Shown: in pieces, positions 15,485 to 40,741 of the stretch | How the letters are laid out: every line of letters starts with the position of its first letter | Position numbering within the stretch: the stretch's first letter is position 1 | Program-made: the position numbers and the translations under genes | Notes under the pieces: generated by a model | The model's database searches: none | What the model was told of the DNA's origin: nothing | Seen by the model: only the letters and a program-made list of their open reading frames with translations | From: a virus | Taxonomy: Duplodnaviria; Caudoviricetes | Direction: 5' to 3' (one strand) | IMG/VR virus record: IMGVR_UViG_3300046531_000318 | Coordinates: 1 to 64,000 of that record | DNA: 64,000 nucleotides

Positions 15485-16183
15485 TTGATTAAAACTTTCG
15501 AACGCAACACCGCCGGCCGCGACTTCGTGGTCGGCGACATTCATGGGTCGTTCTCCCGCCTTGAGGCCGCGCTTGCGGATCTGCGGTTTGACGTAGATCG
15601 CGACCGGCTGTTCTCTGTCGGCGACCTGGTCGACCGTGGTCCAGAGTCCGAGCGCGTGCTCGAGTTCCTCGACAAGCCGTGGTTCCACTCGGTGATGGGA
15701 AATCACGAATGGATGGCGATGGCCTTCGTGATGGGCGATATCGACACGCGCAATTACGCAGCGAACGGCGGGGCATGGCTGATCGGCAAGACGGACGTCG
15801 AGCGCCTGGAGTACTGCCTGCGCTTCGCTGATCTGCCGATCGGGATTGAGGTTGATATCGGCGAAGGTCAGCGCGTGGGCATCGTGCACGCGGAGTGCCC
15901 GCTCGGGTCGTGGGACGAGTTCAAGCTGGCGCTTACGCTCGAGCAGAAGAACGCCGTCTCGATGGCTGCAATGTGGGCGCGGACGCGTATCGATCACCTG
16001 TTAGACGGGCCGATCAGTGACGTCGCTGCGGTCATCGTGGGCCATACCCCTGTCGAGCGCGTGACGAGCCTCGGCAACTCGTTTTACATCGACACAGGCG
16101 CGTTCATTCCCGGCCGCGCGCTCACGGTCGTGCAGCTGGCGCCGCGCCCGGGTGTCGTCCTCGAGGAAGTCGCCACGGCATGA
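15485..16183 (+). CDS. Ser/Thr protein phosphatase (lambda NinI/PphA-like metallophosphoesterase)
   Basis: GDIHG, GDLVDRG, GNHE, GHT, IDTG motifs. Confidence 0.92.
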   Translation: MIKTFERNTAGRDFVVGDIHGSFSRLEAALADLRFDVDRDRLFSVGDLVDRGPESERVLEFLDKPWFHSVMGNHEWMAMAFVMGDIDTRNYAANGGAWLIGKTDVERLEYCLRFADLPIGIEVDIGEGQRVGIVHAECPLGSWDEFKLALTLEQKNAVSMAAMWARTRIDHLLDGPISDVAAVIVGHTPVERVTSLGNSFYIDTGAFIPGRALTVVQLAPRPGVVLEEVATA

Positions 16184-16282: not shown

Positions 16283-17557
16283 ATGATTAAGCCAACCGTG
16301 GGCCGCGTGGTCCTGTTTCAGCCGTTGAAGCCGAGCGATCAACCGCTGCGCGATCAGCCGTTCGCGGCGACGATCTCGTACGTGTGGGGCGACCGGATGG
16401 TCAACCTCTCGTACGTCGACCAAAACGGCACCGCCGGTAACGCGACGTCTGTGGCGCTGCTGCAGGACGACGACGTCGGCAGCGATCGCGGCTATTACGC
16501 CTACTGGATGCCGTATCAGGTGGAGCAGGCCGACAAGGCCGCGAAGGAGGCCGATCACGGCATCAAAACTGGCGACACCGTGCGCCTGCGCAGCGGTGGG
16601 CCGCTTATGGTCGTGGAGTCCGTCAGCGGCCAGAGCGTCGTCTGCATGTGGGCCGGCGAATACATCAACCGGGAATCGTTCAAGGCTGCAACGCTCGATA
16701 AGGTGCAATCGGCCACCGCCGCCGATGTGAAGCTCGAGCATCCGTCTGGCAGCGCGGTGAAAAACGACGGCGACGGAGAAGCGCAGCCTTCTCCCTCGTC
16801 CGTGGTCCCGCGCATTCGCGTTGTCACCGACGGCGGTCTCACGAAGGTGTACGACCACGCAACCGGCGAAGAAATCAAGCTCGTTCAGGCTCTGCGCATG
16901 GAGCACCACAAGGGCGGCAGGATGTATGCCCGCGTGGAGACGCTTGCTCAGGTAGCGACCGCCACGGTGGTATCGGATGCGGAAGTGGAGGCGGTCTCTC
17001 CAGACGCTGCTCGCTCTAAGGGGCCAGTGTGGGATGCGTACGAGGGGCCGGTACTGGCTGCAAGCGATCAGCCGCTGGTGCTCACGGTGAAGGGCGAACT
17101 CTCCGAGGCGGACCTCGCTAGATTCCGCGCGTGTTGGGATGACGCTGCAGTGAAAATCGCGCATAACGGCGATGTGACGATCACTGCGCCGAACGTGAGC
17201 ATCTCGGGTAGTGTGAAGCTGGGCGAAGATGGCCCGCTGCTGGCCGAGGGTACGATGCAGGCGGCGGCTCAAACCGAAGGCCTCGATATCGGCGGTGCCG
17301 TGCGTGCGCTGAACGCGGGCATGCGTCTGAAGCGGCGCGTGTGGGGTGATGTGTGGCTCGCGCTGTCGCCCGGCACGCCCGCACTGCAGGCGGACAAGTT
17401 TTGGGCGGGCCCGAACCGCGACTATGCGGCTTCACGCGAGTCGGGTACGGCGCACGTTCTGCCGTCTGTGACCGTGAAACTTGAGACGGGCGAGATTGTC
17501 ATGGGCTGGGCAGCGAATCCGGTTGATCTGCTCGCGCAGGACTGGTGCGTGGTCTAG
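16283..17557 (+). CDS. Multidomain protein: PTVGR domain + YodC-like (DUF2158) + C-terminal Tad2-like (DUF2829)
   Basis: GDTVRLRSGGPLMVV..VCMW (YodC-like); IGGAVRALNAG.R..R..W...GW.....DLLAQDW (DUF2829-like). Confidence 0.7.
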   Translation: MIKPTVGRVVLFQPLKPSDQPLRDQPFAATISYVWGDRMVNLSYVDQNGTAGNATSVALLQDDDVGSDRGYYAYWMPYQVEQADKAAKEADHGIKTGDTVRLRSGGPLMVVESVSGQSVVCMWAGEYINRESFKAATLDKVQSATAADVKLEHPSGSAVKNDGDGEAQPSPSSVVPRIRVVTDGGLTKVYDHATGEEIKLVQALRMEHHKGGRMYARVETLAQVATATVVSDAEVEAVSPDAARSKGPVWDAYEGPVLAASDQPLVLTVKGELSEADLARFRACWDDAAVKIAHNGDVTITAPNVSISGSVKLGEDGPLLAEGTMQAAAQTEGLDIGGAVRALNAGMRLKRRVWGDVWLALSPGTPALQADKFWAGPNRDYAASRESGTAHVLPSVTVKLETGEIVMGWAANPVDLLAQDWCVV

Positions 17558-18271: not shown

Positions 18272-18395
18272 TGGTTTTCCTCGAAATTTGCGGTAGTGCC
18301 TGGACCCTACACCCAGGCGGTTTACCACGTCAACCGGGCAGCGTACGCCCGGGCGTCGTGACGTCATCCTCGTCGGCATCAATCACGGGGTTCCG

Positions 18396-19838
18396 ATGTC
18401 TGACTCGCGCACGCTCTCCGGCCTCCGTCGGCCGCTTCTCTTTCTGAAGGCGACGGTAAAGAAGCAGGTTTTCATTCCAACCTATACCCGCGGTGACGGC
18501 ACGGTGGTGCCCGGGCATAACGCGATGGTGCACGTCGCGGTCGACCACGACGATGCGAAGGTGGCCGCCGGGCAGGGCACGCATTCGCAGCGGCAGGCGC
18601 ATGCGCGTCTCGCTCGTGACGCTGGGTTCCACGCCCTGCCGACGCAGCACAAGGCCGCCGTGGTGATGAAGCACGCCACGGAAATTCAGGACGCAGCCAG
18701 CGCGGCGGCGCAGCTGTCGACGTTTCGAAAAAAGGTGCTCGCCGGCGAGAAGCCGTCCGCGGCGGAACTGAAGCGCTTCGAGGCGGCACCGGATGACAAG
18801 CGGCGCGCGCTGGTGTCGGAGTTTCGCGCAGCCGGCAAGCTCGACGCGGTACCGCAGGCGCATCACGATCTGCCCGAGCCAGACAAAGAGCGCAGCGCGC
18901 CCGCGAAAAAGGCCGCACAGCCGGTCGCGGACGCTGGCTCTGCCGACACCTCGAAGGACGGCGCCGATGCTCACCTCGAGGCGATCAACGCGGCGAAACT
19001 GCCCGCGTCGAACGTGAATGCGAAGGTCGTAAATATGAAGCTCGACGCCATCGCAGCCGCGCTGAAATCGGGCGACGCTGCGCTGCTCACAATGATGTCG
19101 TACGGGTCGAACAATTACGCGAAAAAGCAGGTTAATCTAGCGAACCGCGCGCTCGAGTTGCTTGGCTCTGCCGAACGTGTGAAACCCGGGCAGAAGGGCA
19201 CGCCTGGATTCCGGACGGATGCGCAGATTGCCGCGGCGAAGCAGGCCGCGAAGGCGCAGCGCACGGTCGATCCGGAGAGCGATAGCCTGATGACGGCGAT
19301 CGCGAAGCTCGGCGGCCTGAAGGCGTCGGAGGTTAGCTCGCAGTGGGGGCTGTCTAAAAACGATGTGAAAGGCGTGCGCGTCGGTATCCTGCCGGTGTTC
19401 TCGTCGCGCGGTAAGTCGATTGAGCGCATGGCCGAGGCGCTGCATGAGCTGGGCTACCTGAACTCTGAAGAGCATAACGAACTCGCCGACCACGTCGAGA
19501 AAGGCCTCGGCGGCGGCGACCACTTCACGGCGCAGGGCTACGCGAACAAGGCCGCGAAGGATCACGAAGCGCATTACCAAGGTTTGACCGGGCAGGACGT
19601 GGCCGCGAGCGGCTTCGATGATCTGCCGCCCGAAGCGCAACAACAGATTGAGGAGTTCCTTGATGAAAACCCCGACTTCACCGCCGAAGAAATCGAAAAC
19701 TTCGAGCGCATGCAGCAACTGGCAGACGCGGATGACGTCCCATTTGAGCCACTTGACTTCGGAACAAAGGGCGCGCGCCACTACGACTTTGGTCAAGCTG
19801 ATGAAGGCTCGGGCAAGCCGGACGACGTCCCCTTCTAA
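18396..19838 (+). CDS. Polyvalent putative internal virion protein (cargo A)
   Basis: LLFLKATVKK..PTYTRGDG N-terminus and AAKLPxSN..KLDAIA helical module shared with 19907; late motif at 18355; acidic tail ending DDVPF. Confidence 0.65.
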   Translation: MSDSRTLSGLRRPLLFLKATVKKQVFIPTYTRGDGTVVPGHNAMVHVAVDHDDAKVAAGQGTHSQRQAHARLARDAGFHALPTQHKAAVVMKHATEIQDAASAAAQLSTFRKKVLAGEKPSAAELKRFEAAPDDKRRALVSEFRAAGKLDAVPQAHHDLPEPDKERSAPAKKAAQPVADAGSADTSKDGADAHLEAINAAKLPASNVNAKVVNMKLDAIAAALKSGDAALLTMMSYGSNNYAKKQVNLANRALELLGSAERVKPGQKGTPGFRTDAQIAAAKQAAKAQRTVDPESDSLMTAIAKLGGLKASEVSSQWGLSKNDVKGVRVGILPVFSSRGKSIERMAEALHELGYLNSEEHNELADHVEKGLGGGDHFTAQGYANKAAKDHEAHYQGLTGQDVAASGFDDLPPEAQQQIEEFLDENPDFTAEEIENFERMQQLADADDVPFEPLDFGTKGARHYDFGQADEGSGKPDDVPF

Positions 19839-19906
19839 GGCCGATTAACGCGGGTTTCTCGCGGTCGTCGTGACGGTAGCCTCGATTCATCGTAATCGGG
19901 GCTCCC

Positions 19907-22900
19907 ATGTCGAACACCACCCTCGCTGGATTTTCCGGTCGTCCGCTTCTGTTCCTGAAGGCGACCGTCAAAAAGAAGGTTTATATCCCGACGTACACGC
20001 GCCACGACGGCGTTGTTGTGCCGGGGCACTGGACGTCGGTTCACGTGGCCGACGACCACGACGGCCATAAGATCCTCGCTGGCGACGGCACCCACTCTCA
20101 AAAGCTCGCGCACAAGGCGCTCTCGAAGCACGCATGGTTCGGCGAACTCCCGCACGACCATAAGGTGCATGTGCTCCTGGAGCACGCGACCGAGATTCAG
20201 GACAAGGCGTCGCTTGCCGCGAAGCTCTCGACGCTGAAGTCGAACGTTCTCGCCGGCAAGAGCCCGACCGCATCGGAGATCAAGGCGTTCCTCGACGCCC
20301 CGAATGAAAAGCAGGAGGCAATCTCGAAGGAAATCGTCGCGGGCGGCCAATGGCACGAGTTCGCAAACTCGATCGTCGCCTGGCAGCAGAAGAACCCGCC
20401 GACCGAGGCCGCTGCGCCGGTTACGCCGGAATCGTTCGAAGCTCCGAAGCCTGCGCCGGAGTCAAAGCCAGAATTCGTGCCGAAGATCATCAAAACGTCG
20501 TACGACGGCCAGCCGGTGGTGATCACCGAGTTGGAGGCGGGCGGCTACAAGCTGTCGGTCGACGGCGTCGAGCACGGCTCTTTCACCACAACGAACGCGG
20601 CGCAGGCCTTCGCGCACAAGCTCGTCTTTGATGACGCAACGAACCCCGAGCCGGCTCCGGTGCCGAAGGTCGTCGCTGCTGCTCAAAATTCCGCGCCGGC
20701 CGTCGGCCCGAACGCGAAGTTGGCGGCGATCACGATGGCTATCGACGCGGCGAAGCTGCCGGAGTCGAACACCAACGCTAAGGGTGTGAACGCGAAGCTC
20801 GACGCGATCGCGAAGGCTGCGGCTGCTGGCGACGCTAAGACGCTGCTGATGATGGGCTACGGCTCCAACAACTACGGCGTCAAGGCGACGAAGCTCGCCA
20901 ATCAGGCGCTCGCGATGCTCGGCTCGACGCACACCGTCATGCCCGGGCAAAAGATGGCGAGTCATCCGGGGCTGAAGGACGCGCCCGCTGCCGCGCCGAC
21001 CGAGCCGGTCACGGTCGTGTCGGCGACGCAAGGGGCGCCTGGGACGAAGATCCCGTCTCCGGCGCCCGCAGTTGTATCCGCCGTTGAGGTCGCACCTGCG
21101 CCGGCCGCTCATGCCGGTCCCGGTCTGCCGGACAGTGAGATTCCGCCGAAGCCGAACGGCGCAAGCACAACCGATTGTGCGGTGGCAGCAGCTGCGGCCA
21201 AGGCCGGCGAACTCGGCAAGCTGAAATCGATGATTGCGAAGATCTCGAACAGCGTAAAACCCGCGCCTAAGACGTTGAAGTACGTCACGGACCTCAAGAA
21301 CAAGCTGGAGGCGCAAAAGGATAAGCAGGCTTTGGCGGAGGCGAGCGCGATGATCGCCGCCAGCGGCCCGAAGGAAGGCGAAACCAAGCAGGGCGCTGAC
21401 GGCACGCTCGTGTTCAAGGACGGGCGCTGGCACAAGGTGGACGAGCCTGCTGCTGCCGCGCCAGCGGCTGCTGTGAAGAAGGAGGTTTCTGGCTTCAAGT
21501 ACACGCACACCGGCGACGGGCACAACAAGTTCTGGACGGTTGCTCTGAATCAGGGCGCCGACGGTAAGTGGCACGTACACACCCACTACGGGAAGATCGG
21601 CTCGAAGGGCGCTGTCACCACCAAAACGTTCGCCACGCACGCGGCGGCGGACGCTGAAGCAGTGAAGCTCTCCAAGCAGAAGCAGGCAAAGGGCTATAAA
21701 TCGGCTGGCATCGGTACGTTCGCGGTGGACGGCGTCGGCACTGCACCTGTCGCTGCATCGCCTGATACCGCTGCTGCTCCCTCCCAAAAACCTGCACCGA
21801 AGGTCGTAGCCGCCTCACAAGCGGCTCCGAAGGCCGCGCCCGCGTCTATCGATGGCTGGGCCAAAACGGGCGGCCAGCAGGGCTATAACGACGGCGGCAC
21901 GTATGTGGATCCGCAGGGCATCGCCTGGTATTGCAAGTTCCCGGCCGGCGGTGAGAAGGTCGTCAAGAACGAACTGCTTGCCTCGAAGCTCTACGCGCTC
22001 GCGGGCGTCGATGCGGCTGAAACCAAGATGATCACGCAAGGCGGCAAGGTCGGTATCGCCTCGAGGATCGTCGCTGGCGCGAAACAGGACAAGGACGCGC
22101 TTCTCGCCGGCAAGGCGCCGGGGCTGCTCTCGGGCTTTGCCGTCGACGCGTGGCTCGCGAACTGGGACGCGGTCGGCAATAACCCCGCGAAGGGCTACGA
22201 CAACATCCTGATCAAGCCGGACGGCGCTGCCGTTCGCATCGACTCGGGCGGGGCGCTGCTGTACGGCGGCGCTGGCGGCAAAAAGCAGCAGTTCACGGAC
22301 AAGGTCATCGAGCTTAAGACCATGCTCGACCCGAAGAAGAACGCCCACACGGCTGCTGTGTTCGGGAAGATGAGCCAGGCGGACATTGCCGCCTCGGTGG
22401 CGAAAGTTGCGGCCATCTCCGACGATGCGATCAAGGAGTACTGCCAGCAGTACGGCCCGGGCGACCCCACGCAGCGCGAGCGCATGGCTAACACGCTGAT
22501 CGCGCGCAAGGCCGACATGCTGTCGCAGGATCCGCACGTCGCGAAAATGGCCGACAAGCTGAAGGCCGCAACGAAGAAGCCTGCCGCGAAGAAGGTCAGT
22601 GACGTGTCGTGGGTGAAGCTCAAACCGGGCGAGAAGGTCGTTGAGAAGGGCGAGCAGTTCGGCGGCTCGTACGTGAAGATCGAGGTTCCGGCGAAGGGCT
22701 TCAACAAAGCGGGCATCCCGCAGCCGTACGTCTACGACAAGTCCAGCTCGTCGTTTGTGAACGCGCAGAACACGGCCGACATCAAGTCGGTCTATGACAC
22801 CGCGATTACCACGCACGACCCGGATGCGGTGCTCGGGCTGAAGTACGAGCAGATCGAGAAGGCCACGGGCGTCAAAACCGGAAAGATGCTCACGCTCGAG

Positions 22901-23701
22901 GAGCACCCGTCCAAGGCGTACGTAAAGGAGTACGTCAACCAGGTAGCGGCGGAACTGAAGGCGCAGACCGAGCCGACGTACCGGATCGAACACCGCGGCG
23001 GCTTCACGTCGACGTACTCTGCCGCGGCGAAGCAGATCGCCTCGAAGGTCAAGACGATCGGCTACGAGAAGTTCGCGAAGTGGGCCCACAAGGCGGCGGA
23101 CTATCTGGTGCTCGACAAGCACGCGGGTGCCGGTATCCCGACGCCGCACGAAGAGATGTTCCACAACGTAGAGCCGAGCGACCCGGCGATGAAGGCGTTC
23201 AAGGCAGCGAGCGACACCAATTTCGCGAAGCTCACGGAGAAGGAAAAGACCGCGTGTCAGGCGTACACCGGGAGCGCCTACTGGAACTGGAACTCCGCGA
23301 TGCGCCTGGGCACCGTCGACTCTGCCGAGTTCAAGGCGGGCGATCCGATGCGCAAGGCGTTCGCCAAGGCGGCGGTCGATCTGCCCGAGGGCATCATCCT
23401 GCATCGCGGGCTGAACGTCGGCGGCGACACCTATAAATCGGTCATCGGCGCCGTGATTCAGGATGGCTCGTTCCAGTCCTCGAGCTACGGCAAGAAGGCC
23501 GCTTTCTCGGGTAAGACCTCACAGTTGCGGCTGCACGTCACAAAGGGCGTTAAAGGTATGATGGCCACGACCTTTTCTGGCTTTGGCTCGAGCGAGCGTG
23601 AGATCATCCTGCATCCGAACTGCCGTTACGTCGTGACCGGCGTCGAAAGCAAGAACGGCCAGAACGTCGTTGACGTGCTGGTCCTGCCTCATGAGGAATA
23701 A
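19907..23701 (+). CDS. Polyvalent protein (cargo B): tag + helical module + WGR + HipA/PI3K-like kinase domain + VIP2-type ADP-ribosyltransferase
   Basis: HNKFWTV...YGKIGSKG...KQAKGY (WGR); WYCK, NELLASKLY, DAWLANWD..DN, RIDSGG (kinase-like); LHRG, FQSSS, EREIIL (R-S-ExE). Confidence 0.8.
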   Translation: MSNTTLAGFSGRPLLFLKATVKKKVYIPTYTRHDGVVVPGHWTSVHVADDHDGHKILAGDGTHSQKLAHKALSKHAWFGELPHDHKVHVLLEHATEIQDKASLAAKLSTLKSNVLAGKSPTASEIKAFLDAPNEKQEAISKEIVAGGQWHEFANSIVAWQQKNPPTEAAAPVTPESFEAPKPAPESKPEFVPKIIKTSYDGQPVVITELEAGGYKLSVDGVEHGSFTTTNAAQAFAHKLVFDDATNPEPAPVPKVVAAAQNSAPAVGPNAKLAAITMAIDAAKLPESNTNAKGVNAKLDAIAKAAAAGDAKTLLMMGYGSNNYGVKATKLANQALAMLGSTHTVMPGQKMASHPGLKDAPAAAPTEPVTVVSATQGAPGTKIPSPAPAVVSAVEVAPAPAAHAGPGLPDSEIPPKPNGASTTDCAVAAAAAKAGELGKLKSMIAKISNSVKPAPKTLKYVTDLKNKLEAQKDKQALAEASAMIAASGPKEGETKQGADGTLVFKDGRWHKVDEPAAAAPAAAVKKEVSGFKYTHTGDGHNKFWTVALNQGADGKWHVHTHYGKIGSKGAVTTKTFATHAAADAEAVKLSKQKQAKGYKSAGIGTFAVDGVGTAPVAASPDTAAAPSQKPAPKVVAASQAAPKAAPASIDGWAKTGGQQGYNDGGTYVDPQGIAWYCKFPAGGEKVVKNELLASKLYALAGVDAAETKMITQGGKVGIASRIVAGAKQDKDALLAGKAPGLLSGFAVDAWLANWDAVGNNPAKGYDNILIKPDGAAVRIDSGGALLYGGAGGKKQQFTDKVIELKTMLDPKKNAHTAAVFGKMSQADIAASVAKVAAISDDAIKEYCQQYGPGDPTQRERMANTLIARKADMLSQDPHVAKMADKLKAATKKPAAKKVSDVSWVKLKPGEKVVEKGEQFGGSYVKIEVPAKGFNKAGIPQPYVYDKSSSSFVNAQNTADIKSVYDTAITTHDPDAVLGLKYEQIEKATGVKTGKMLTLEEHPSKAYVKEYVNQVAAELKAQTEPTYRIEHRGGFTSTYSAAAKQIASKVKTIGYEKFAKWAHKAADYLVLDKHAGAGIPTPHEEMFHNVEPSDPAMKAFKAASDTNFAKLTEKEKTACQAYTGSAYWNWNSAMRLGTVDSAEFKAGDPMRKAFAKAAVDLPEGIILHRGLNVGGDTYKSVIGAVIQDGSFQSSSYGKKAAFSGKTSQLRLHVTKGVKGMMATTFSGFGSSEREIILHPNCRYVVTGVESKNGQNVVDVLVLPHEE

Positions 23702-23702
23702 G

Positions 23703-24173
23703 ATGGAAAACACATCAGCACTGCCGGCGGCGGCCGGCGCTCCGGAGTCGGGCCAACTCGAGAACGGTCGCCTGTGGCTGAACACCGCGAGCGTCGTGGA
23801 CCGCATTGTTCGGGACTTCACCGCCGACGCGCTGCGCGTGCTCGCGCATGCGGACGTGGAGGCACAACTCGACTTTCGCTGCCGCGCTATGAACACGCTT
23901 TTCCTCGGCGGCCCGGTGCCGACGGATCGTTACGAGCGCGGCCCGTGGAACACGCCCGAGCAGCTGGGGCAGTCCATTCTCACGGCGCTGCGCATCGAAG
24001 GCGAGACGCGGCTCGCGGTGCGCGACGCTTTCATGGTCTACCTGTCTGCGGTGCTCGACGGCGTGGATCCGGATCAGTTCGACGCCGCGGCGCTCGAGCC
24101 GTACGTCGCGAACCTGCGCAATGCGCTACTCGGCCTGCCGGATTCATCGCCTTACTGGACAGTGCGCGAATAG
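23703..24173 (+). CDS. Small acidic protein immediately after the ART gene (possible inhibitor/immunity)
   Basis: GAGG RBS inside the ART gene end; function inferred from position. Confidence 0.5.
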   Translation: MENTSALPAAAGAPESGQLENGRLWLNTASVVDRIVRDFTADALRVLAHADVEAQLDFRCRAMNTLFLGGPVPTDRYERGPWNTPEQLGQSILTALRIEGETRLAVRDAFMVYLSAVLDGVDPDQFDAAALEPYVANLRNALLGLPDSSPYWTVRE

Positions 24174-24244
24174 CGACAGGCGACGTGACACGCTCGGTCG
24201 GGACGGTATAGTGCGAACCATCCCCAATTCGCCCCGGCCGCGCT

Positions 24245-25795
24245 ATGCCCGTCGTTCTATTCCTGAAAGCCCATGTGAAGGGCTACACCCGGCAGGACGG
24301 CGTGTTCGTCAAGGAACACGACACCAAAGTCCAGAAAAAGCACAAACCGGACAATGCGTGGGCGAAGCCGGGCGCGGCGGTGCCGAAGAAGCCGGCCGGG
24401 AAGAAACCGGCCGCGCTGAAGGTCGAGCCGCCCAAGACCGCGTTCCTGTTCTCCGGCATGAAGAAGGTTCCGCCCACGGCGGCTCTGCATCCCAGCCCTG
24501 ACGATCAGGGCAAACCCTTTCATATCCATGCGCCCAGCGAGCCGTCGGCGGCCGACACGTGGGCCGATCCCACGGCGACGGCGGTGTTCGTGCCGGGCGG
24601 CGCCGCGCCGGCGGAACTGAGCGGCGTTCCGTTCGCGCCGTGGGCCGATCACCCGCGCACGCTCGAGGGCTGGCAGTACGTGCCCGGGCAGATGCACGAC
24701 CTCGAGGAACCGGAATTGTCCCTGCACGGCAAAGAGCCGGCCGCAGGCGTCGTCATTGAGGAACCGGACGGGCGCGTGTGGATGGTCAGCCCGACGAACG
24801 GCTTCGCGGGCTACCGGACCACCTTCCCGAAGGGCCACGCCGACGACGGCATTTCGCTGCAGGCGACCGCGATCAAGGAGGCATTCGAGGAATCGGGCCT
24901 GCAGGTGGAGATCACGGGCTTTATCGGCGACGTCGAGCGGTCGCAGACCATGACGCGCTACTACCGCGCGCGGCGTGTCGGCGGCACGCCTGCGGCGATG
25001 GGCTGGGAGTCGCAGGCAGTGACGCTCGCGCCGGCGTCCGCGGTGCACGAGGAACTGAACCGCTCGGTCGATCGTCAGGTGGCCACGCTCGCGGGCATCG
25101 CTCCGCCGGCGGGGCTCGCCGAGTCGGTGGACGACTGGACGAAGGTGGGGAAGGCGGCGGGCTCGAACCCGGGCGGCTTCTTCGAGGATCCGGCCGGACA
25201 GGAGTGGTACGTCAAGGTGCCGAAGTCCACCAACATCGCGAAGAACGAGATTCTCGCCTCGAAGCTGTACGAGGCGGCCGGCGTGCGCGTGCCCGAACTA
25301 AAGCCCGTGACGGTCGGCGGTAAAACGGCTATCGCGTCGAAGATCATTCCCGGGCTCGAGAAGTTCACGGACGGCTCGGAGCACGTTGATGGCGTGATGG
25401 ACGGCTTCGCGGTGGATGCATGGCTCGCGAATTGGGACGTCGTCGGCCTGCTGCACGACAACCTGCTTGCGGACGAGCATGGGCGCGCGGTGCGCGTGGA
25501 CGTCGGCGGCTCGCTGATCTACCGCGCGCAGGGCGAGCCGAAGGGCAAGGCGTTCGGTACCGAGGTGGGCGAGCTTGAATCGCTCACCAATGGCAAGAAC
25601 GCGCAGGCCGCGTCCGTGTTCGGCCATATCACGCACGATGAACTGCTCGCAGGCGTCGCGCGCGTGGCGTCGGTCACTGATGCCAAGATCCGCGCTCTGT
25701 GCGAGGAACACGGCCCCGGCACCGCTGCGCAGCGTCAAAGCCTGGCGGATACCCTCATCGCCCGGCGCGCATACCTGATGGCGCTCGCGGGATAG
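24245..25795 (+). CDS. Polyvalent protein (cargo C): tag + Nudix hydrolase + kinase-like domain
   Basis: VLFLKAHVKGYTRQDG; FPKGHADDGISLQATAIKEAFEESGL Nudix box; second kinase-like copy WYVK, NEILASKLY, DAWLANWD..DN, RVDVGG. Confidence 0.8.
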   Translation: MPVVLFLKAHVKGYTRQDGVFVKEHDTKVQKKHKPDNAWAKPGAAVPKKPAGKKPAALKVEPPKTAFLFSGMKKVPPTAALHPSPDDQGKPFHIHAPSEPSAADTWADPTATAVFVPGGAAPAELSGVPFAPWADHPRTLEGWQYVPGQMHDLEEPELSLHGKEPAAGVVIEEPDGRVWMVSPTNGFAGYRTTFPKGHADDGISLQATAIKEAFEESGLQVEITGFIGDVERSQTMTRYYRARRVGGTPAAMGWESQAVTLAPASAVHEELNRSVDRQVATLAGIAPPAGLAESVDDWTKVGKAAGSNPGGFFEDPAGQEWYVKVPKSTNIAKNEILASKLYEAAGVRVPELKPVTVGGKTAIASKIIPGLEKFTDGSEHVDGVMDGFAVDAWLANWDVVGLLHDNLLADEHGRAVRVDVGGSLIYRAQGEPKGKAFGTEVGELESLTNGKNAQAASVFGHITHDELLAGVARVASVTDAKIRALCEEHGPGTAAQRQSLADTLIARRAYLMALAG

Positions 25796-33184: not shown

Positions 33185-34888
33185 TTACGACCAGTCGATG
33201 GTGCCCGGCGCCGGGCACGTCCACGATGCCTTCAGGCGTTCGCGCATCTCGGCGAGCGTCGTCGTGCGCAGCAGCTTTCCGTCACGGAAAACCGGCACCA
33301 GTTCGCCGCCGTCGAACTGCTCGAGCGTCTGCTGTTCGTGGAGCACGTAGTCGCTTCCTTCCTTCTCGACGCGCAGCAGCCCCTTCGCTGACTTCTTCGT
33401 GCCGTCGTCGGTGGCCGGGTCTTTGTAGATCGCCACCTGTTCGCCGCCAACCTCCGCGTAGACCGCCTTCATGGCCCAGCCGAACGTATCGCGCGAGAGC
33501 ATGTTGTACGTGTACGAGCCGATGCCGAACACGACGTTGTTGGACGCGAAACCCTTCGCGACGAGGCGGTGCATGATGTCGCGGGCGCGCGGCAGGCTGA
33601 TGCTGTCGCCGTAGATCAAGCCGACGCTGTCGTCCAGCACCTTGAATCCCTTCGTCGTCGTGGTGCCGCCATAAATGTCCCACAGGCACTCGACGGCGCC
33701 TTTACGCTCCGCTTCGGTGATGCGCGTGTCGGTGCCGTCGAGTACCAGGTACTTGCCATCGGTGAACAGGTACGGCTGACCTTCTTCGTCGCAGGCGAGT
33801 TCGTCATCAAAGTATCCGGTCAGGATCTTCACTGGATCGCCCGAGTCCGGCCGAAACACCACCTTGCGCATGCCGAGCGCGTTCGGCGCGCGCGCGCGGA
33901 TCTCATCCTTTAGATCGCGGGCCACTTTGGTGATGACCGCCCAAAAGTCGAACGAGTCGGCGACGATCGATACCATGCCGGTCGGGTAGTCCTGAGTCAC
34001 CAGTTCGCGGATGACCTCGCACTCCGCCAGGCGGCGCAGCGCCTTTTCCTCGAGGCCTTCATTGCCCGGCGCACGTGCGAGGCGCTGCTGCGTGAGCAGG
34101 ATGCGCAGCGTCATCACGCTGTGCTCCGTGGCCGGGATGGAGCCGCCGACCAGTTCCGTGTCCGCGTTAGCGCCGTAGAAGTCCTCGGCGTAGTCGATGG
34201 CCGGGATCGTGTCGGTGCCGGTGAAGGACAGCAGGTGGCCCGCGCCGCAGCGCATCGCGTCGTGCACGCCGCTCATGCCGCGCATCGAGAAGTCGTGGCC
34301 CTGCCAGTCGATGAATTCCTTCGGTGCGCCGGTCACCTCTGCGAAGTAGGTCAGGAGCTTGCGGAACTCAAACGCGAGCGTCGCCACGGTCGACGGCTTC
34401 CAGTTCTCGCAGCTGAAGATCGTTTCGAAGTAGGTAGCGAGCCACGGGAATTCCGGGTGCGTGTTGATGAACACCACCGGCGGAACCTTGATGTTCACGC
34501 GGGCGCCTTCCGGCAGCGCGCGGATCTCGAGCGGCAGGTACCCGAGGTCGTGGAGCGCCTCGAGCTTGTCGGTCGACACGGCGTCCTGTCCGAGTGCCGT
34601 ATCCATGCGGCGCTTGAACTTGTGCACTGCGGGCTTGGTGCCGACGCCGAAAAACTCGCGGTTAAACAGCCCGATCAGGTACTCGCTGATGAAGCCCTGG
34701 AGGCCGAACCAGACCACTTTGCCGTCGAACAATTGCGGCAGGACCGGTGCGTACTTCGCGCTGCGCGGCGTGAAGTTGGCGACGAGCTTCGTCGTCTCTG
34801 CTGGGTAAAGTCCCGGATGCGAAGTCTTATAAAAATCTGCAAGATTGAAAGGAACCAGGCCATTCTTTACGCCGTACGGTGCATTCAT
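33185..34888 (-). CDS. NAMPT/NadV-like protein (NARP1 Namat-like)
   Basis: DFYKTSH, HDFSMRG, HLLSF.GTDT, ATEHSV, DSFD, RPDSGDP, IYGDSI, KDPATD..KKSAKG. Confidence 0.9.
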   Translation of the reverse strand: MNAPYGVKNGLVPFNLADFYKTSHPGLYPAETTKLVANFTPRSAKYAPVLPQLFDGKVVWFGLQGFISEYLIGLFNREFFGVGTKPAVHKFKRRMDTALGQDAVSTDKLEALHDLGYLPLEIRALPEGARVNIKVPPVVFINTHPEFPWLATYFETIFSCENWKPSTVATLAFEFRKLLTYFAEVTGAPKEFIDWQGHDFSMRGMSGVHDAMRCGAGHLLSFTGTDTIPAIDYAEDFYGANADTELVGGSIPATEHSVMTLRILLTQQRLARAPGNEGLEEKALRRLAECEVIRELVTQDYPTGMVSIVADSFDFWAVITKVARDLKDEIRARAPNALGMRKVVFRPDSGDPVKILTGYFDDELACDEEGQPYLFTDGKYLVLDGTDTRITEAERKGAVECLWDIYGGTTTTKGFKVLDDSVGLIYGDSISLPRARDIMHRLVAKGFASNNVVFGIGSYTYNMLSRDTFGWAMKAVYAEVGGEQVAIYKDPATDDGTKKSAKGLLRVEKEGSDYVLHEQQTLEQFDGGELVPVFRDGKLLRTTTLAEMRERLKASWTCPAPGTIDWS

Positions 34889-35811
34889 TGTGATTTTCCT
34901 TCTGTTGTTAAATTAGGTTTTTTCTTCCGGATGGGAGGAGCGCAGACGTGCCGCCCCCTGCTCGCGAGCATCAACTTCTCAATCGCAGGCGCGGTTCCTA
35001 GCCGGAAAGTAACCAAGGTTTCGTTGTGCCATGCGGTCACTCTCCGGCCTGTGCAACAGGCGCTTATCGCTTTGAAATGCACGCCTGTCTCATCCATTGC
35101 TGTTCTGGCATTTACATATGTGCCGAGCAATCGCCCATCTATGGAGTACATAGAAACTTGCTTGCTCAGGCGCTCGACGTTGTCGGGACGGATCGATCCT
35201 AGCTTTGCTGCTCTGATCTTGTCGCCGAAACCTTCCGGTTTTGGCTTGCCCAGGTGAACTTGCCGTAGCTTTTCGCGGGTTTCCTCCGTTATCAGTCTCG
35301 GGTTTTCGGCTCGAGTTTTCGCGATCCTCGCCAATACCTCAGGGCTATGCTTCCTGCCGATGGCTCTGATCCGCAGCTTCGCCTTGTGCTCTGGTGTCAA
35401 AGGGCGACCTCGCGCTGAGGAGGCGCGCTTTTCCACCGCCTGTTTGCTCCGCGCGCGATAGCTCAGTGAACCACCACCTTCCGTGATGTTTGTTAAGACG
35501 CCAGAACCGTTAGCAGTTCTTCCCCATCGTGCGATAAGAGCCATCTCAAGGTCGAACGCCTCATTCTTTGTAAGCCCGTCGCGCACGAACATCAGAAACG
35601 CATCGCGCCCGGTAGCTTCTCTGATCTTCTTTACTTTCCGGGCCTTGTGCGGGTTGTAAAGATTCTCGTAGACGCCGCAAGTGAAGTGCTTGAACGCTCG
35701 ACGGTCTTTGCCCATGCCAACGTAAAACGGCTCATAGGGGACACCTCTGCCGTCATTTAGCGGCTTTCGCGGGTCACACAGCATGTAGACGTAGAACAGC
35801 GCGTGGGTCAT
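34885..35811 (-). CDS. Free-standing GIY-YIG (LEM-3-like) homing endonuclease with NUMOD3/NUMOD1 motifs
   Basis: FYVYMLCDPR...FYVGMG..RA..H, E..LI..WG, LTN.T.GG; TPEHKAKL/HSPE/TEETREKL repeats; V.MYSIDG..L.TY; visibly lower GC. Confidence 0.8.
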   Translation of the reverse strand: MTHALFYVYMLCDPRKPLNDGRGVPYEPFYVGMGKDRRAFKHFTCGVYENLYNPHKARKVKKIREATGRDAFLMFVRDGLTKNEAFDLEMALIARWGRTANGSGVLTNITEGGGSLSYRARSKQAVEKRASSARGRPLTPEHKAKLRIRAIGRKHSPEVLARIAKTRAENPRLITEETREKLRQVHLGKPKPEGFGDKIRAAKLGSIRPDNVERLSKQVSMYSIDGRLLGTYVNARTAMDETGVHFKAISACCTGRRVTAWHNETLVTFRLGTAPAIEKLMLASRGRHVCAPPIRKKKPNLTTEGKSQ

Positions 35812-35835
35812 GGCGTGGCACTAGAATTTGGACGT

Positions 35836-36654
35836 TCAAACGATTACGCAGCGGCTGTCGTCAGTCCAGTTATTTCTCGTGAATACTCGGTCGTAGCACT
35901 CGAGCAGCGGGTCGAGTCCTTTGCTGAAGATGCCGTGCGTGACGTACAGGTAGATGGGATGCATGTAGTTCTGCTCGCGGATCGCTGCGGCCAGTTCGAT
36001 GAACGTCCGGCCGCCGTCGCAGATGTCGTCCACCACCAGCAGCGGGCCGCCAGGCAGTTCCGACTGGATCTCGGTGCCGGTGATGTGGCCGGTTCGCGTG
36101 TCGCGCACCTTGTCGGCGTACACGACGTCACAGCCAGTTTCCTTGGCCAGCTTGAGAACGCGTTTGCGGGCGCCGGCGTCGGGCGCCACCATCGTCGGTT
36201 GCTGGCGCGCGATGAGGAAAATCTGCCCGACGACTTCGCGCAGCGCCGGCAGCGGATCTTGGATCTGGACACGGTCCAGCAGCGCTGTGACGACGTCGCT
36301 GTGGGGGTCTTGGATGCCTACCAATGCATAGTTTTGCGCGTTGATAAGTTGGCAAAAAACCTTGACGCTGTGTGCTTCGCCCGGGTTCGCGACGCGGTCC
36401 TGCCGTGCGTACGGGACGTATGGCATGTCGAGAACAATGGGCCTGCCGGGATACGCCTGCCGCACTGCATCGGTGACCATGAGCAGCGTCATAACCTCTG
36501 CGGAGTCGCTCAGATGGGCGCGCACGAGAACGTCATCAACGCCATCCACACCAGCTTCGACTGACGCATGGATCTCGCCGCCTGGGAACGTTAGGGTTTT
36601 CAGCTCAAGCGGACGCTGCGAGCCATTTCTATTGAGGGCCGACAAATGAATCAT
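35836..36654 (-). CDS. PRPP-synthetase-like protein (NARP1 Adps-like)
   Basis: FPGGE, PYVPYARQDR, DPHS, APDAGA, VVDDICDGGRTF, VTHGIFSKG. Confidence 0.9.
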   Translation of the reverse strand: MIHLSALNRNGSQRPLELKTLTFPGGEIHASVEAGVDGVDDVLVRAHLSDSAEVMTLLMVTDAVRQAYPGRPIVLDMPYVPYARQDRVANPGEAHSVKVFCQLINAQNYALVGIQDPHSDVVTALLDRVQIQDPLPALREVVGQIFLIARQQPTMVAPDAGARKRVLKLAKETGCDVVYADKVRDTRTGHITGTEIQSELPGGPLLVVDDICDGGRTFIELAAAIREQNYMHPIYLYVTHGIFSKGLDPLLECYDRVFTRNNWTDDSRCVIV

Positions 36655-36872
36655 TGTTTTTCTTCCAGCGGGTTGTAATCCGGGTGAAGCCCGGTCTTGA
36701 TGAGGAACAACTCAAATCTCGCGGCATCGATCCTGCGGGTGCCGCGCTCGTATTCGGACCACCGCGAGCCGCTGGCAAGATGCACCAGCGTCGCGGCCTT
36801 GGACTGGCTCACGCGCGCGGCGCGGCGTAGGGCGCGGATCTCGTCACAGGTCGGGGTCTGCAATTTCTTCAA
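36651..36872 (-). CDS. XRE-family HTH protein
   Basis: IRALRRAARVSQSKAATLV..WSEYERG. Confidence 0.75.
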   Translation of the reverse strand: MKKLQTPTCDEIRALRRAARVSQSKAATLVHLASGSRWSEYERGTRRIDAARFELFLIKTGLHPDYNPLEEKQ

Positions 36873-37675
36873 AACAGTTCGCCTTGCTCGGTGAGCGGTG
36901 GTGACCAGGTAATGCCGCGCTCGCGCTCAATGCGGCGCCGCGCGTTCTCGCGCACGGCGTGCTTCAGGCGCTCAGCCTCACTTTGTTCAATCGGTTGCGT
37001 CATCAGGTCCGTCGAGCCGGCATGCTCGGGGCAGTAATCACGGCTGTCGAACCCGCCTAAAGGCTTGCTCGCCTTGATGTGGATCCAGCCGCGGTATTCG
37101 GCGTGGCCACGGCACAGCGGCATGTCGCAGGTGTACGGTGCTGCGAGCGCGCGGATCCTTTTCTCCTTGCGGTCGATGCCAGTCACTCGCGCGCCGATCG
37201 GCCAGCCGAACGTGAAATCACACAACAGCGTCGCGGGCTCATTGCAATAGAAGCAGCGGTGTTGCGGCTTTGGCATCACCATTCGCCGGCGAGCCCGTTC
37301 AGCTTCAACAGCACAAATCGGACGTTCGCCGTGCTCGAGTCGCGGTAGATGCCGCGCGCGATCGCGCCGACCAGGTACAGCAGGTAAAGCCGCTGCGTTT
37401 CGCGCGTCCACGCGTCTAGCTGGCCTTTAGCCTTGGCATCGGGCATGGGCGGCACCGGCGCGCAGCTGGGCCGCAGCTTTTCCGGTATCGCTGCGATCGC
37501 CGCGGCATGTTCGGCGCGCGCCGCACTGTGGTCCGGCTCGGGTTCGGCCGCTTTCTTGGCCTTCTGCGGCGCGGCGGCCGGCGGCGGCGCTGCGTCGAAC
37601 ATGTCGAGCGTGCGCGGGCAGCGCTCGAGCGGCGCAGGCGGCGGCGCTTGAACCTCTGGCGCTCCGCCGAACATA

Positions 37676-38041
37676 TCAAGCTGCATCGGGCACCTCCGTG
37701 CCGAACCTGCCATGCACAAAGGCCCGCATGGCACTCTCCAGTGGTGTGCTGCCGTCCATTGCGCCGAAGGCGTTAAGGCACCGCACGGGGCCGACTACGT
37801 CGGTTTGCATGAAGACGTAGCCTTGATTGAGTAGTCGGCCGAGGATCGGGCCGCCGTCTGCCCATGACGACGACGGTTCGAACGTGCGGTAGCGGGTAAT
37901 CGGGCCTTCGTCGTCCTCGCTCTCGTACGGCACCATGACAAAGCCAGGCGCCATTTCTCGCATGGCGCGCGGGTGTTCGATGCCTTCGGCTTTCGCGACC
38001 CAATAGTCGAGCAGGGCGCCGCTGAGTTCGGCAACCTTCAT
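37676..38041 (-). CDS. NinX-like (DUF2591) phage protein
   Basis: ELSGALLDYWVAKAEG..PSSSW..GGPI..PL.SAMRAFV. Confidence 0.7.
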   Translation of the reverse strand: MKVAELSGALLDYWVAKAEGIEHPRAMREMAPGFVMVPYESEDDEGPITRYRTFEPSSSWADGGPILGRLLNQGYVFMQTDVVGPVRCLNAFGAMDGSTPLESAMRAFVHGRFGTEVPDAA

Positions 38042-38401
38042 GCGTCACCTCGCTCGATGTCCCACACCGGCGCGGGGAACTCGACCCAATGCGTCACACC
38101 GGCGAACGGGCGGTGGTGACCGACGTCCTCATCGGCTACCCAATGCAGGCCGGCTGCGAGCGCTCTGCGCTCCGCCAACGTGAACTGTGCGCCGCCACGG
38201 CTGCCAATCGCGCGCTGCTCGATCTTTTCCGCGCTGTAGAACTCCGGGTGCTCGGGCTGATGCAGAGGCCACCCCGAGACGATGCATCCGTCGAAGATGA
38301 ACGCCACGCGTCCAATGGACTCCTGATAGCCGGGCTCGCCATCGCGGGGCGGCAGGCCGTCGACGGCCACGTCGTGAATTTTCACGGTGATCTCGCGCAC
38401 G

Positions 38402-39610
38402 TCAGGCTCCCTTCACGCAGAGGACTTGCTTCAGGACGTGGACCACGTCGACCAGGTCGCGCTGGTTCTCCATCACTGCGTCGATGTCCTTGTACGCGGA
38501 TGGGATCTCGTCCAGCACCGCGTCGTCTTTCCGGCACTCGACACCCTCGGTTTGTGCCTTGAGGTCGTCCAGATTGAACACTTTGCGGGCCTGCGTGCGG
38601 CTCATCTTGCGGCCGGCACCGTGCGAGCATGAGCAGTAAGACTCGGCGTTGCCCTTGCCCCGCACGATATAGCTGCGCTGGCCCATCGAGCCCGGGATGA
38701 TGCCAAGGTCGCCTTCGCGCGCGCGGATCGCGCCTTTGCGTGTGACCCACAGGTTGCGGCCGAAGTGGTTTTCCTTTTCGACGTAGTTGTGGTGGCAGTT
38801 GATCGCTTCCTGCGTGATCGTGAATTCGACCGGGATGCGTCTGCGCAGGGCCGCGATAACTGTTTCCATCATCACGCGGCGGTTCTCGAGTGCATAGTTC
38901 TGCGCCCAATTCACCGCTTCAACGTATTCCTTGAAGTCGTCGGTATCCTCGGGCAGGTAGGCGAGATCGCCGTCGGGCAGGCTGATGAAGTACTGCTCCA
39001 TGCGACGCTTTGCCTTCTCGATGAAGTAGCGGCCGATCATGTTGCCAATGCCGCGCGAGCCCGAGTGGAGCATGATCCAAACGTCTTGCGCCTCGTCCAC
39101 GCAAATCTCGATGAAGTGGTTGCCGCTCCCGAGCGTTCCGAGTTGCGTTGCCGCTTTGCGCTGGGCCTGTGCATTGGACTGTGCGGACGCATCGCCAAAG
39201 GCGCGCGCCACACTGTTCGGTATCGTCGTGATCCGGGCAGCCAATGCTTCGATATCGCTATCGCGGCGGTGTGCTCCACCGGCACCAAGCGGCACGTCGC
39301 GCTCGATCTGGTGGCGGATCGCCGTCAGGCTGTCCGGGAGGTCGCTCGCCTTGAGCGACAGGCGCACGGCGTTCATGCCGCATCCGATGTCGACGCCGAC
39401 GGCTGCCGGGATAATGGCCTTGTCCGTGGCGATAACCGTGCCGACCGTCGAGCCTATGCCGGCGTGGACGTCCGGCATGCAGGCCACGCCATTGCCGGCG
39501 ATAAATGGCAGGCGCGCGAGGTTCTTCAGTTGCTTCAGCGCGCTGTCCTCGACTTCGTCGGTCCAGATCTTGATCGGGCGTGAACCCTCGTCGTGCAGAA
39601 CTTGCTTCAT
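38402..39610 (-). CDS. rtcB: RtcB RNA 3'-phosphate/cyclic-phosphate ligase
   Basis: MPDVHAG, DIGCGM, GTLGSGNHFIE, HSGSRG, HHNY, SHGAGR, AYKDI. Confidence 0.95.
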   Translation of the reverse strand: MKQVLHDEGSRPIKIWTDEVEDSALKQLKNLARLPFIAGNGVACMPDVHAGIGSTVGTVIATDKAIIPAAVGVDIGCGMNAVRLSLKASDLPDSLTAIRHQIERDVPLGAGGAHRRDSDIEALAARITTIPNSVARAFGDASAQSNAQAQRKAATQLGTLGSGNHFIEICVDEAQDVWIMLHSGSRGIGNMIGRYFIEKAKRRMEQYFISLPDGDLAYLPEDTDDFKEYVEAVNWAQNYALENRRVMMETVIAALRRRIPVEFTITQEAINCHHNYVEKENHFGRNLWVTRKGAIRAREGDLGIIPGSMGQRSYIVRGKGNAESYCSCSHGAGRKMSRTQARKVFNLDDLKAQTEGVECRKDDAVLDEIPSAYKDIDAVMENQRDLVDVVHVLKQVLCVKGA

Positions 39611-40741
39611 TGTGTCCTCTGTCAGTGCATGGTCGGGGCTTGGACCGGGACGGTCACGAACGTGACCACCTTGCGTACTTCCGGCATGAAGGTGGCTCGT
39701 CTCGGCGTGCCTGCGATCTTTGAGGTGCCTGCCCACGCTTCGGCCGACGTGAAAATCTGCACGGCCAGAATCTCATCGGCGCTCGCGGTCACTTCGGCGA
39801 TGACCTCCGCCGTCAGTGCGCGCGGGCTGCCGTCAGCGTTGCGCGGGACGGCAACGTCGAACGCCTCGGTGATGATGACCACAGCGTCGGGCTTCGGTCT
39901 CACCTGCTCGCGCGCTGACGTGCCTTCGGTCAGAAGCGCTCGGACCACGAACTCCAGGCGGTCCGGTGCCTTGCTCAAAAACTCTTCCGTCAGTTGTTCG
40001 GGCATCTCGGCGACCACGTGTCCGTCGATGCGACGCGCGACCAGGAAGATTGCGGGCTTGAAGCGGCCGTTCGTGTTGAATTCATCGACGGCTGTCTTGG
40101 CGAACTCCGCGTAAAGCGCGGTGATCTGCTCGGGGGTAAAGGTAGCTGTGGCGGTCATAGGGTGGTCAAGTTCGGTTGGCGCTTAAAGCTCGCCGATCCG
40201 GCGGAGGTGGGTGAAAAGCACGCGCTGGCCGGCGCGGACCTGGCTTGCGGTCGACGGCTTGCTTGGCTTGGCCACGCGGCGCGCACGAATCGCGTCGCAC
40301 GCGTTGCAGATCGCGCGGTGCGTGCAGCCGGGAGCGCGGTGCTCGATCGGCTTGTGCGTGCGGCAGGTGAAGCAGAAAAAATCGGCCATGCTTATTCCCA
40401 CTCGAATGGGTATGGCTGCATCGCGTACTCGCGCTCGATTGCCATGCAAGCTTCACGTCCGTCTTGTGCCGGCTGGCGGCTCGCGCGGAGGGCGCGGAAG
40501 AAGGAGAGGATCCGTTTCACGTCGGCTGCTCCATCGACGCGCATTCTTCGCAGATCTGCCGGTTCTCAAGGCGCGGGAAAAATCCGCAGGACTCGCACAT
40601 TTCGAGGTCCGCGTCGTCATGCGGCTGCGCATCGGTCGGCGCAAACTGCGGGCGGGCGTGCTTCTCTTGGGATCGCTTGCTCATGGTGTCTCTCGGGCGG
40701 GTGTCGCGTTGCGCCCGGTCATGCCGGGCGCGGCCTTCTCT

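Follow-up and report, generated by a model that had tools for sequence, protein, structure and literature searches.

A candidate head-loaded effector cassette with a common N-terminal leader in a Burkholderia-type myovirus

In bacteriophage T4, the capsid-targeting sequence and the propeptides of IPI-III and Alt are removed by the gp21 prohead protease, and both cleavage and packaging have been shown experimentally. Computational surveys, as far as their accessible text goes, have described polyvalent proteins of phages and conjugative elements and predicted head-packaged effectors (Iyer et al. 2017, PMC5512222), and have predicted packaged NAD/ADP-ribose enzymes of myoviruses, including ADP-ribosyltransferases (ARTs) and Nudix enzymes, that are injected early (Iyer et al. 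2022, PMC9503650). Here, we describe a four-gene cassette in the virus record IMGVR_UViG_3300046531_000318, of which the first 64 kb (the window) were analysed. Three of its products, A, B and C, begin with the same short leader, which resembles the predicted cleavage sites in the phage's own head proteins. Packaging of A, B and C in some form, an uncut leader included, appears probable; on balance, and by a modest degree, we favour the more specific reading that the three proteins are loaded into the head by means of the leader, which is then trimmed.

The complete viral record comprises 92,866 bp with a G+C content of 63%, and the window holds a myovirus gene set with portal, protease, scaffold, capsid, sheath and terminase. 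The capsid protein is 64% identical to its counterpart in Pseudomonas phage Touem01; remoter relatives, each of about 90 kb, are Morganella phage Mecenats66, Bordetella phage PHB04, Pseudomonas phages Dolphis and Jeremy, and E. coli phage ECML-606-1. The nearest protein homologues stem from Burkholderia and Paraburkholderia records, and the phage is a myovirus of approximately 93 kb of the Burkholderia/Paraburkholderia type. The cassette lies 4 kb upstream of the terminase gene, its genes arranged on the plus strand in the order A-B-D-C:

18396-19838, plus strand: gene A, 480 amino acids; leader 1-19 (Lys18-Ala19), beta-hairpin 20-48, helical domain 53-146, helical LP-x-SN-x-NAK module 186-255, domain of unknown fold 275-445 and disordered acidic tail 446-480.
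19907-23701, plus strand: gene B, 1264 amino acids, polyvalent; leader 1-19, N-domain in common with A 20-150, helical module 274-352, G-x-LVFKDGRWH hairpin 499-510, WGR domain 531-600, CtkA-like kinase 648-873, linker domain 880-1100 and VIP2/Alt-type ART 1107-1252.
23703-24173, plus strand: gene D, 156 amino acids, acidic (isoelectric point 4.5), without leader; starts 2 nt past the stop codon of B; third-codon-position G+C content (GC3) 0.82.
24245-25795, plus strand: gene C, 516 amino acids; leader 1-9 (Lys8-Ala9) followed by the hairpin, Lys/Pro-rich linker, Nudix domain 164-245 and CtkA-like kinase 295-513.

The reading frames of A, B and C are uninterrupted, and their GC3 values of 0.77-0.86 are typical of coding DNA. 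An initial annotation of this DNA had described these as three neighbouring genes; the reading frames stand and the adjacency does not, with D located between B and C. Gene D had been left out of that gene set, and the C-terminus of A that resembles the tail of a single-stranded DNA-binding protein (SSB) had been missed. The common N-terminus and helical module of A and B, by comparison, were recognized correctly: the two proteins align over residues 1-150 and the helical module (BLASTP, E 4e-59). B (residues 648-873) and C (residues 295-513) share their kinase domain at 42% identity (BLASTP, E 2e-48), as had also been proposed, and C has only the leader and hairpin in common with both A and B. 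Among isolated phages, a search with the cassette DNA gave no match, and neither did tblastn with residues 1-150 of B, even at E 1.

The leader consists of a hydrophobic run and an invariant Lys-[Ala/Ser] pair (Lys18-Ala19 in B as in A), directly followed by a small beta-hairpin. When the leader of B was compared with the whole genome, it matched A, B and C only (E 4e-24, 2e-16 and 8e-3), which bears out the N-terminal tag that had been noticed on these three genes. The Lys is invariant in three independent alignments, with Ala or Ser as the next residue, and it is likewise invariant across 35 divergent leader-bearing representatives. The hairpin is as conserved as the Lys, and G35 and H41 within it are invariant. 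The AlphaFold2 model of A shows disorder over residues 1-16 and a hairpin from residue 20 onwards, which places Lys18-Ala19 at the border of the folded part. A Sec signal was considered and rejected for the leader, in which the hydrophobic run spans just 4-5 residues and no signal-peptidase pattern is present.

The distribution of the leader extends far beyond this phage. A phmmer search of 1.84 billion cluster representatives retrieved 4,775 relatives of the kinase domain at E <= 1e-3 (1,266 at E <= 1e-30), mostly within proteins of 1,000-7,000 residues. The 150 best representatives, each standing for one 50%-identity cluster, were examined: a pattern search located the leader in at least 51 of them, at residues 4-35 and with one of two hairpin types, and about a dozen more were recognized by eye. 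An IMG/VR scan with C returned 275 contigs; in about 20 of the 80 that were fetched, both the giant and the Nudix protein bear the leader, and some contigs hold additional leader-bearing genes. The leader is also retained on the Nudix proteins of E. coli phage ECML-606-1 and of a distant viral contig (L097). A 586-residue protein of a related viral contig (L036, 11250-13007) carries a double phi-x-K-[S/A] site and hairpin twice, at residues 24-58 and 437-470. The internal copy indicates that the leader can occur inside a protein, as in a polyprotein, and the twofold arrangement is a better fit to a cleavage signal than to a purely structural strand. A further motif, G-x-L-V-F-K-D-G-R-W-H, follows G-P-K-E-G-D-T-K in B (residues 499-510; window 21401-21436) and occurs in one to four copies between modules of the giant proteins, including those of Touem01 and ECML-606-1; it resembles the hairpin after the second leader type and may be a repeated small adaptor fold.

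The resemblance of the leader to head-protein sites was assessed with the pattern [LIVMF]-x-K-[SA], of which the window proteome contains 49 copies in 15,320 residues. The head genes concerned are the following:

45327-46232, plus strand: prohead protease (PHROG 1028), with an N-terminal M-L-K-A site predicted to be cut after Lys; the presumed leader-trimming enzyme.
46241-46966, plus strand: scaffold protein, 241 amino acids, with six phi-x-K-[S/A] sites.
47007-48458, plus strand: major capsid protein (PHROG 752), with a predicted cut between K26 and S27 of L-R-K-S, immediately before a conserved L-x-A-G-Y.

The motif is enriched in the scaffold (6 copies versus 0.77 expected, p 1.4e-4) and in the protease (6 versus 0.96 expected, p 5e-4), the portal contains five copies, and sites lie near the N-termini of capsid, portal and protease, at residues 24-27 in both capsid and protease. 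The LKA of the tag matches this motif of the capsid, scaffold, portal and protease, as had been proposed. Nine relatives keep the capsid site, the N-terminal protease site and 5-8 scaffold sites in place. The capsid protein is homologous to its Herelleviridae counterparts from the predicted cut onwards, and K26-S27 aligns with K23-S24 of gp88 of Brochothrix phage A9 and with the K-A pair of the 'capsid precursor' of Bacillus phage SP-10. The Cps protein of Listeria phage A511 is reportedly cut between Lys23 and Ser24; a literature search on SPO1/Twort-type capsid proteins found no usable cleavage site. Internal phi-x-K-[S/A] sites of B and C were considered as domain-separating cuts and rejected: they fall within folded domains, and there are no more of them than chance predicts.

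Two side observations concern the head proteins themselves. Residues 210-240, in the C-terminal part of the protease, closely resemble residues 20-50 of the capsid protein; the segment, conserved in relatives, comprises the L-R-K-S site followed by G-Y...T-G-G-x-A-L-R-x-Q-S-L, and may be a means of co-assembly into proheads and later release. The gene after the portal (43557-45065) is MuF-like by position and encodes an H-x-x-C-R type motif close to the C-terminus. The start as called yields an Arg/Ser-rich extension of 95 residues that is absent in relatives, which places the true start probably near residue 96 and an L-A-K-A site about 25 residues from the resulting N-terminus.

The proteins might be packaged with the leader uncut, the hydrophobic strand and hairpin forming a permanent dock to portal, scaffold or capsid interior in the manner of MuF, and Lys-Ala being kept for binding. 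In other members of the kinase family the N-terminal slot is occupied by MuF-like domains (10 of the 150 representatives) or by another conserved type (8 of the 150), and the leader holds that same slot; the equal conservation of hairpin and Lys, and the lack in A, B and C of the acidic residue found at scaffold-type sites, would suit a dock as well. We nevertheless regard this account as unlikely, given that Lys-[Ala/Ser] is the most invariant feature and lies exactly where disorder gives way to fold, that relatives contain tandem and internal double sites, and that the same motif marks the presumed capsid cut.

The company kept by the cassette points to the head too. In Touem01 and ECML-606-1 the gene order is a giant kinase-ART protein, a protein of 160-167 residues and a leader-bearing Nudix protein. 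In one distant contig (L097), the portal gene is followed 6 nt later by a gene for a protein of 1,902 residues, then by genes for a 155-residue protein and a Nudix protein; in another (L099), a giant protein, a 155-residue protein, a Nudix protein and a 149-residue protein precede terminase and portal. The kinase domain is fused to Phage_Mu_F in 100% of one Atlas cluster (101 members); it also occurs joined to MuF plus ART and, in BFVD, to a portal of the HK97 type. Of the indirect evidence for carriage of the family in the head, these MuF and portal fusions are the strongest.

The same evidence bears on the possibility that A, B and C are made late and stay in the cytoplasm of the producing cell, where they might for example modify phage or host proteins during assembly, the N-terminus being a folding, oligomerization or regulatory element. 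Packaging is itself a prediction, and a NinI-like Ser/Thr phosphatase gene (15485-16183) lies just upstream of the cassette, such that a kinase/phosphatase pair could act within one cell. The MuF and portal fusions of this kinase domain, the triad directly after the portal or before terminase and portal in distant phages, and the likeness of the leader to the capsid-protease site make cytoplasmic action improbable. That the common N-terminus is a mere leftover of gene duplication without a function of its own is highly improbable: A and B are plainly paralogous across some 150 residues and the helical module, yet C shares just the leader and hairpin, which persist on the Nudix proteins of ECML-606-1 and L097, and the Lys does not vary among the 35 divergent representatives.

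The cargo that would be delivered by leader-directed head loading is multifunctional. The kinase domain is covered by none of the Pfam-A, PHROGs and PADLOC models searched; the HipA_C family (PF07804) matches residues 314-362 of C with E 0.016 and 15.3 bits against a cut-off of 30.5, which is below membership by score, and a sequence search against the PDB gave a chance match only. A structure model of the C domain, built by AlphaFold2 on 18 sequences, reaches a pLDDT (predicted local distance difference test) of 93.7, and a kinase fold emerged when it was compared with the PDB, in keeping with the relationship to HipA and PI4-kinase whose checking had been recommended. The best match is H. 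pylori CtkA (Z 16.6, root-mean-square deviation 3.2, 209 of 227 residues aligned), followed by B. cereus CotH (Z 14.5), Legionella LepB (12.2), HipA (approximately 10.8) and PI3/PI4-kinases (approximately 9). The catalytic residues are K677, E689, D747, N752, D754 and D779 in B, and K324, E335, D391, N396, D398 and D419 in C; the beta3 Lys, the helix-C Glu, the D-x4-N motif and the metal-binding Asp are invariant in the kinase alignment (K35, E46, D102, N107 and D130 in domain numbering). Because of the CtkA-like fold and the invariant catalytic residues, the domain is very probably an active atypical protein kinase of the CtkA/CotH/HipA branch. It resembles CtkA, CotH and HipA in its fold and in its Lys, Glu, D-x4-N and D-x-G residues, and differs from them in having just 10-18% sequence identity and in being embedded in polyvalent proteins.

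The WGR, ART and Nudix modules of B and C are recognized by Pfam, in agreement with the earlier domain calls. B carries a WGR domain (PF05406; residues 531-600, E 2e-13, 50.4 bits versus a cut-off of 22) and an ADPrib_exo_Tox domain (PF03496; E 4e-12, 46.2 bits versus 23.4) with the ART residues R1167, S1191-1193 and E1230-x-E1232, of which S1193, E1230 and E1232 are invariant in the corresponding alignment (A6). By sequence and fold, B is a polyvalent protein that combines a nucleic-acid-binding WGR domain, a catalytically intact kinase and an intact R-S-ExE mono-ADP-ribosyltransferase. This architecture is a family consensus and not a singleton, since a WGR domain is present in 18 of the 35 leader-bearing representatives and an ART in at least 10. 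The Nudix domain of C (PF00293; E 1e-11, 45.5 bits versus 21.1) has a sequence match to an Ap4A hydrolase in the PDB and retains the E-x-x-E-E core (E212, E215 and E216) and G218 of the Nudix box, for which the consensus is G-x5-E-x7-R-E-U-x-E-E-x-G-U.

Gene A is represented by seven homologues, all with leader and tail and one of them fused to InPase (PF18823); no Pfam or PHROG family covers it. Its AlphaFold2 model has a pLDDT of 71.8 and a predicted template modelling score (pTM) of 0.35, with residues 446-480 disordered as well as residues 1-16. The full model found no match in the PDB (Foldseek, E <= 1e-3), which for a multi-domain protein with a pTM of 0.35 is no proof of a new fold. The tail contains DDVPF at residues 446-450 and again at the very C-terminus, residues 476-480 (window 19731-19745 and 19821-19835), similar to the C-terminal tail of SSB. 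The phage's own SSB (161 amino acids; C-terminus near genome position 78089, minus strand) ends in the canonical tip DDDIPF, and all full-length homologues of A keep the SSB-tail-like motif. Since the disordered acidic tail carries two such motifs that are kept in homologues, A may be an SSB-tail mimic, a competitor at the pockets with which host nucleases and helicases bind the SSB tail.

Gene D has 44 homologues, and in the cassettes of the relatives examined a member of its family always lies between the giant protein and the Nudix protein. Direct BLASTP of D against the equally placed gene of Touem01 gave no match; via intermediates, D is homologous to the equally placed genes of Touem01, ECML-606-1 and a distant contig. 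Orphan homologues with approximately 50-56% identity occur in Paraburkholderia chromosomes, where neither a kinase-ART nor a Nudix partner accompanies them:

L100, 8001-8444: orphan D copy, Paraburkholderia chromosome.
L102, 8001-8462: orphan D copy, Paraburkholderia chromosome.
L103, 8001-8435: orphan D copy, Paraburkholderia chromosome.

Among them, one copy adjoins a tyrosine integrase, another adjoins a large serine recombinase at the boundary of an integrated element, and a third lies in an accessory region of a prophage. The placement of D and the orphan copies beside integrases fit an inhibitor of B that could have been captured by other mobile elements; a chaperone fits equally. PADLOC models gave no match for A, C, D or one orphan copy of D.

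A candidate late-gene control element accompanies the cassette. Its copies near A and B, and the promoter of C, are located as follows:

18355-18363, plus strand: 9-mer GTCGTGACG, 41 nt upstream of A; candidate late-gene control element.
19867-19875, plus strand: 9-mer GTCGTGACG, 40 nt upstream of B.
24185-24212, plus strand: sigma-70-like promoter of C (GTGACA, 16 nt spacer, TATAGT), overlapping a late 9-mer with one mismatch at 24197-24205.

The window contains 11 exact copies of the 9-mer, all on the plus strand, versus 1.8 expected (18355, 19867, 27851, 29683, 41674, 45067, 45304, 51297, 55390, 61004 and 62842). Ten of these lie upstream of A, B, terminase, portal, protease or tail genes, and the copy at 27851 precedes no confident open reading frame. 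The whole genome contains 14 copies, again all on the plus strand (the additional ones at 65133, 70743 and 87716), and nearly all are located 5-60 nt ahead of a gene for packaging, head or tail. Downstream of the copies, no common -10 element was found. Several copies are just 5 nt from the ATG, for instance those of the portal gene and of the gene after 62842, a spacing that suggests late mRNAs that are leaderless or have very short leaders, or else mis-called starts. The initial annotation had given each of the three genes its own late promoter; a candidate precedes A and B, in the form of the exact copies, and not C, which has only the one-mismatch copy and the sigma-70-like promoter.

Taken as a mechanism, A-B-D-C would be a late-expressed effector cassette in which the leader addresses A, B and C to the assembling prohead. 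There, a Lys-specific maturation protease, which would also trim the capsid protein and cut the scaffold after the Lys of phi-x-K-[S/A], would remove the leader, and the mature proteins would be carried inside the head and delivered into the cell along with the DNA. As infection begins, B would phosphorylate and ADP-ribosylate host proteins, for which T4 Alt and the T7 kinase are precedents. The Nudix part of C would degrade ADP-ribose-type nucleotides or caps, and A would occupy the SSB-tail pockets of host DNA-processing proteins. In the producing cell, the leaderless D would keep B inactive or act as its chaperone. A broad anti-defence action of a phage kinase, with T7 as the precedent, is described in the accessible part of a further report (PMC13645617). 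A modular system that loads enzymes into the head had been proposed at the outset: its domain calls stand, and the N-terminal address matching a head-protease motif is backed by comparative evidence, namely leader, synteny, fusions and the 9-mer. The description of the enzymes as 'writers and erasers' of post-translational marks is a plausible conjecture.

It is important to point out that several observations weigh against head loading with leader trimming. In scaffold, capsid and protease, the sites are preceded by an acidic residue, 3-4 positions ahead of the Lys, where the leaders of A, B and C are hydrophobic. The motif is short, as its 49 copies in the window proteome illustrate, and the Lys specificity of the protease is deduced from homology and from the reported A511 Cps cut. 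A literature search found no virion proteomics for this phage or its relatives, and the Mecenats66 paper contains none. The late-promoter role of the 9-mer is itself presumed; C, with a sigma-70-like promoter in place of an exact copy, could be expressed earlier. Finally, the Nudix box of C is off consensus at two positions, with Ile for the first Glu and Lys for Arg; Touem01 and ECML-606-1 show the same variant.

The genomic neighbourhood of the cassette is densely occupied by counter-defence functions centred on NAD and ADP-ribose, to which the Ser/Thr phosphatase is also assigned. Immediately upstream lies a gene for a four-domain protein with a C-terminal Tad2-like domain and DUF2158 (16283-17557), and downstream there are a PRS-like/NAMPT-like pair and RtcB (33185-39736). 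These neighbours indicate a phage heavily invested in NAD/ADP-ribose conflict, which would suit an injected ART and Nudix enzyme. The kinase-ART-Nudix set, the Tad2-like sponge and the NAD-salvage genes together suggest a lineage whose assault on host signalling and NAD-based immunity starts in the first second of infection.

A wider reading joins these threads, and we advance it tentatively, as one that may well prove wrong. The leader would be a portable capsid-loading and cleavage signal, able to serve any cargo, of a very large undescribed effector family with thousands of clusters, in phages with a Lys-specific protease of the Herelleviridae type; it would represent a second, independent invention of T4-type targeting. 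D would inhibit the injected kinase-ART protein as its cognate partner, and orphan copies of D would have been captured by other mobile elements and by Paraburkholderia chromosomes as a defence that neutralizes this effector. If the leader is such a loading and cleavage signal, it provides a simple sequence rule for predicting the injected proteins of many uncultured phages, and a handle for packaging foreign proteins into heads other than that of T4. With 4,775 clusters, the CtkA-like kinase ranks among the commoner phage effector domains. Should the orphan D genes beside integrases be anti-effector immunity genes, they would constitute a new kind of defence.

How does the cassette compare with described systems? 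The polyvalent proteins of Iyer and colleagues, in the accessible text of the two papers, likewise combine several unrelated effector domains in one phage polypeptide, with ART as the commonest modifier and with genes beside head genes. B (WGR, kinase and ART) and C (Nudix and kinase) each unite at least two unrelated effector domains in one polypeptide, and their link to head and packaging genes is evident from the 4 kb to the terminase, from the two distant contigs and from the MuF and portal fusions. The same text ties packaging to fusions with MuF, portal or peptidase and does not mention a leader of the present kind; the term 'WGR' has no occurrence in it. Its kinase is without the C-terminal subdomain and belongs mainly to phages of Verrucomicrobia and Bacteroidetes, whereas the domain described here is a complete CtkA-like one. 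The initial annotation knew of no characterized system with this combination; that statement needs to be narrowed, as the class is already published and WGR-kinase-ART proteins are widespread in databases. In the accessible portions of the literature, no description was found of the leader or of its correspondence to a Lys-specific head protease, nor of the complete CtkA-like kinase family, D or the proposed SSB-tail mimicry of A. The effector class is known and, within these bounds, the leader appears undescribed.

MuF-toxin fusions of temperate phages and the Dar proteins of P1 share with the cassette a head-associated delivery of toxin or anti-defence domains, and a small gene after the toxin gene recalls D in the way of an immunity gene. 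Pfam finds no MuF domain in the three leader-bearing proteins, the sequence of D is conserved and not hypervariable, and similarity to Dar proteins was not detected. A further parallel is T4. Its sites are cut after Glu (L/I-x-E) and the present one would be cut after Lys; cleavage and packaging are inferred here; the present leader is followed by a conserved hairpin, and it has no sequence similarity to the T4 capsid-targeting sequence or to gp21 sites. In both phages, a short N-terminal leader is common to unrelated cargo that includes an ART, as in A, B and C here, and in T4 that leader ends in a site for the phage's own head protease, the enzyme that also cuts the scaffold.

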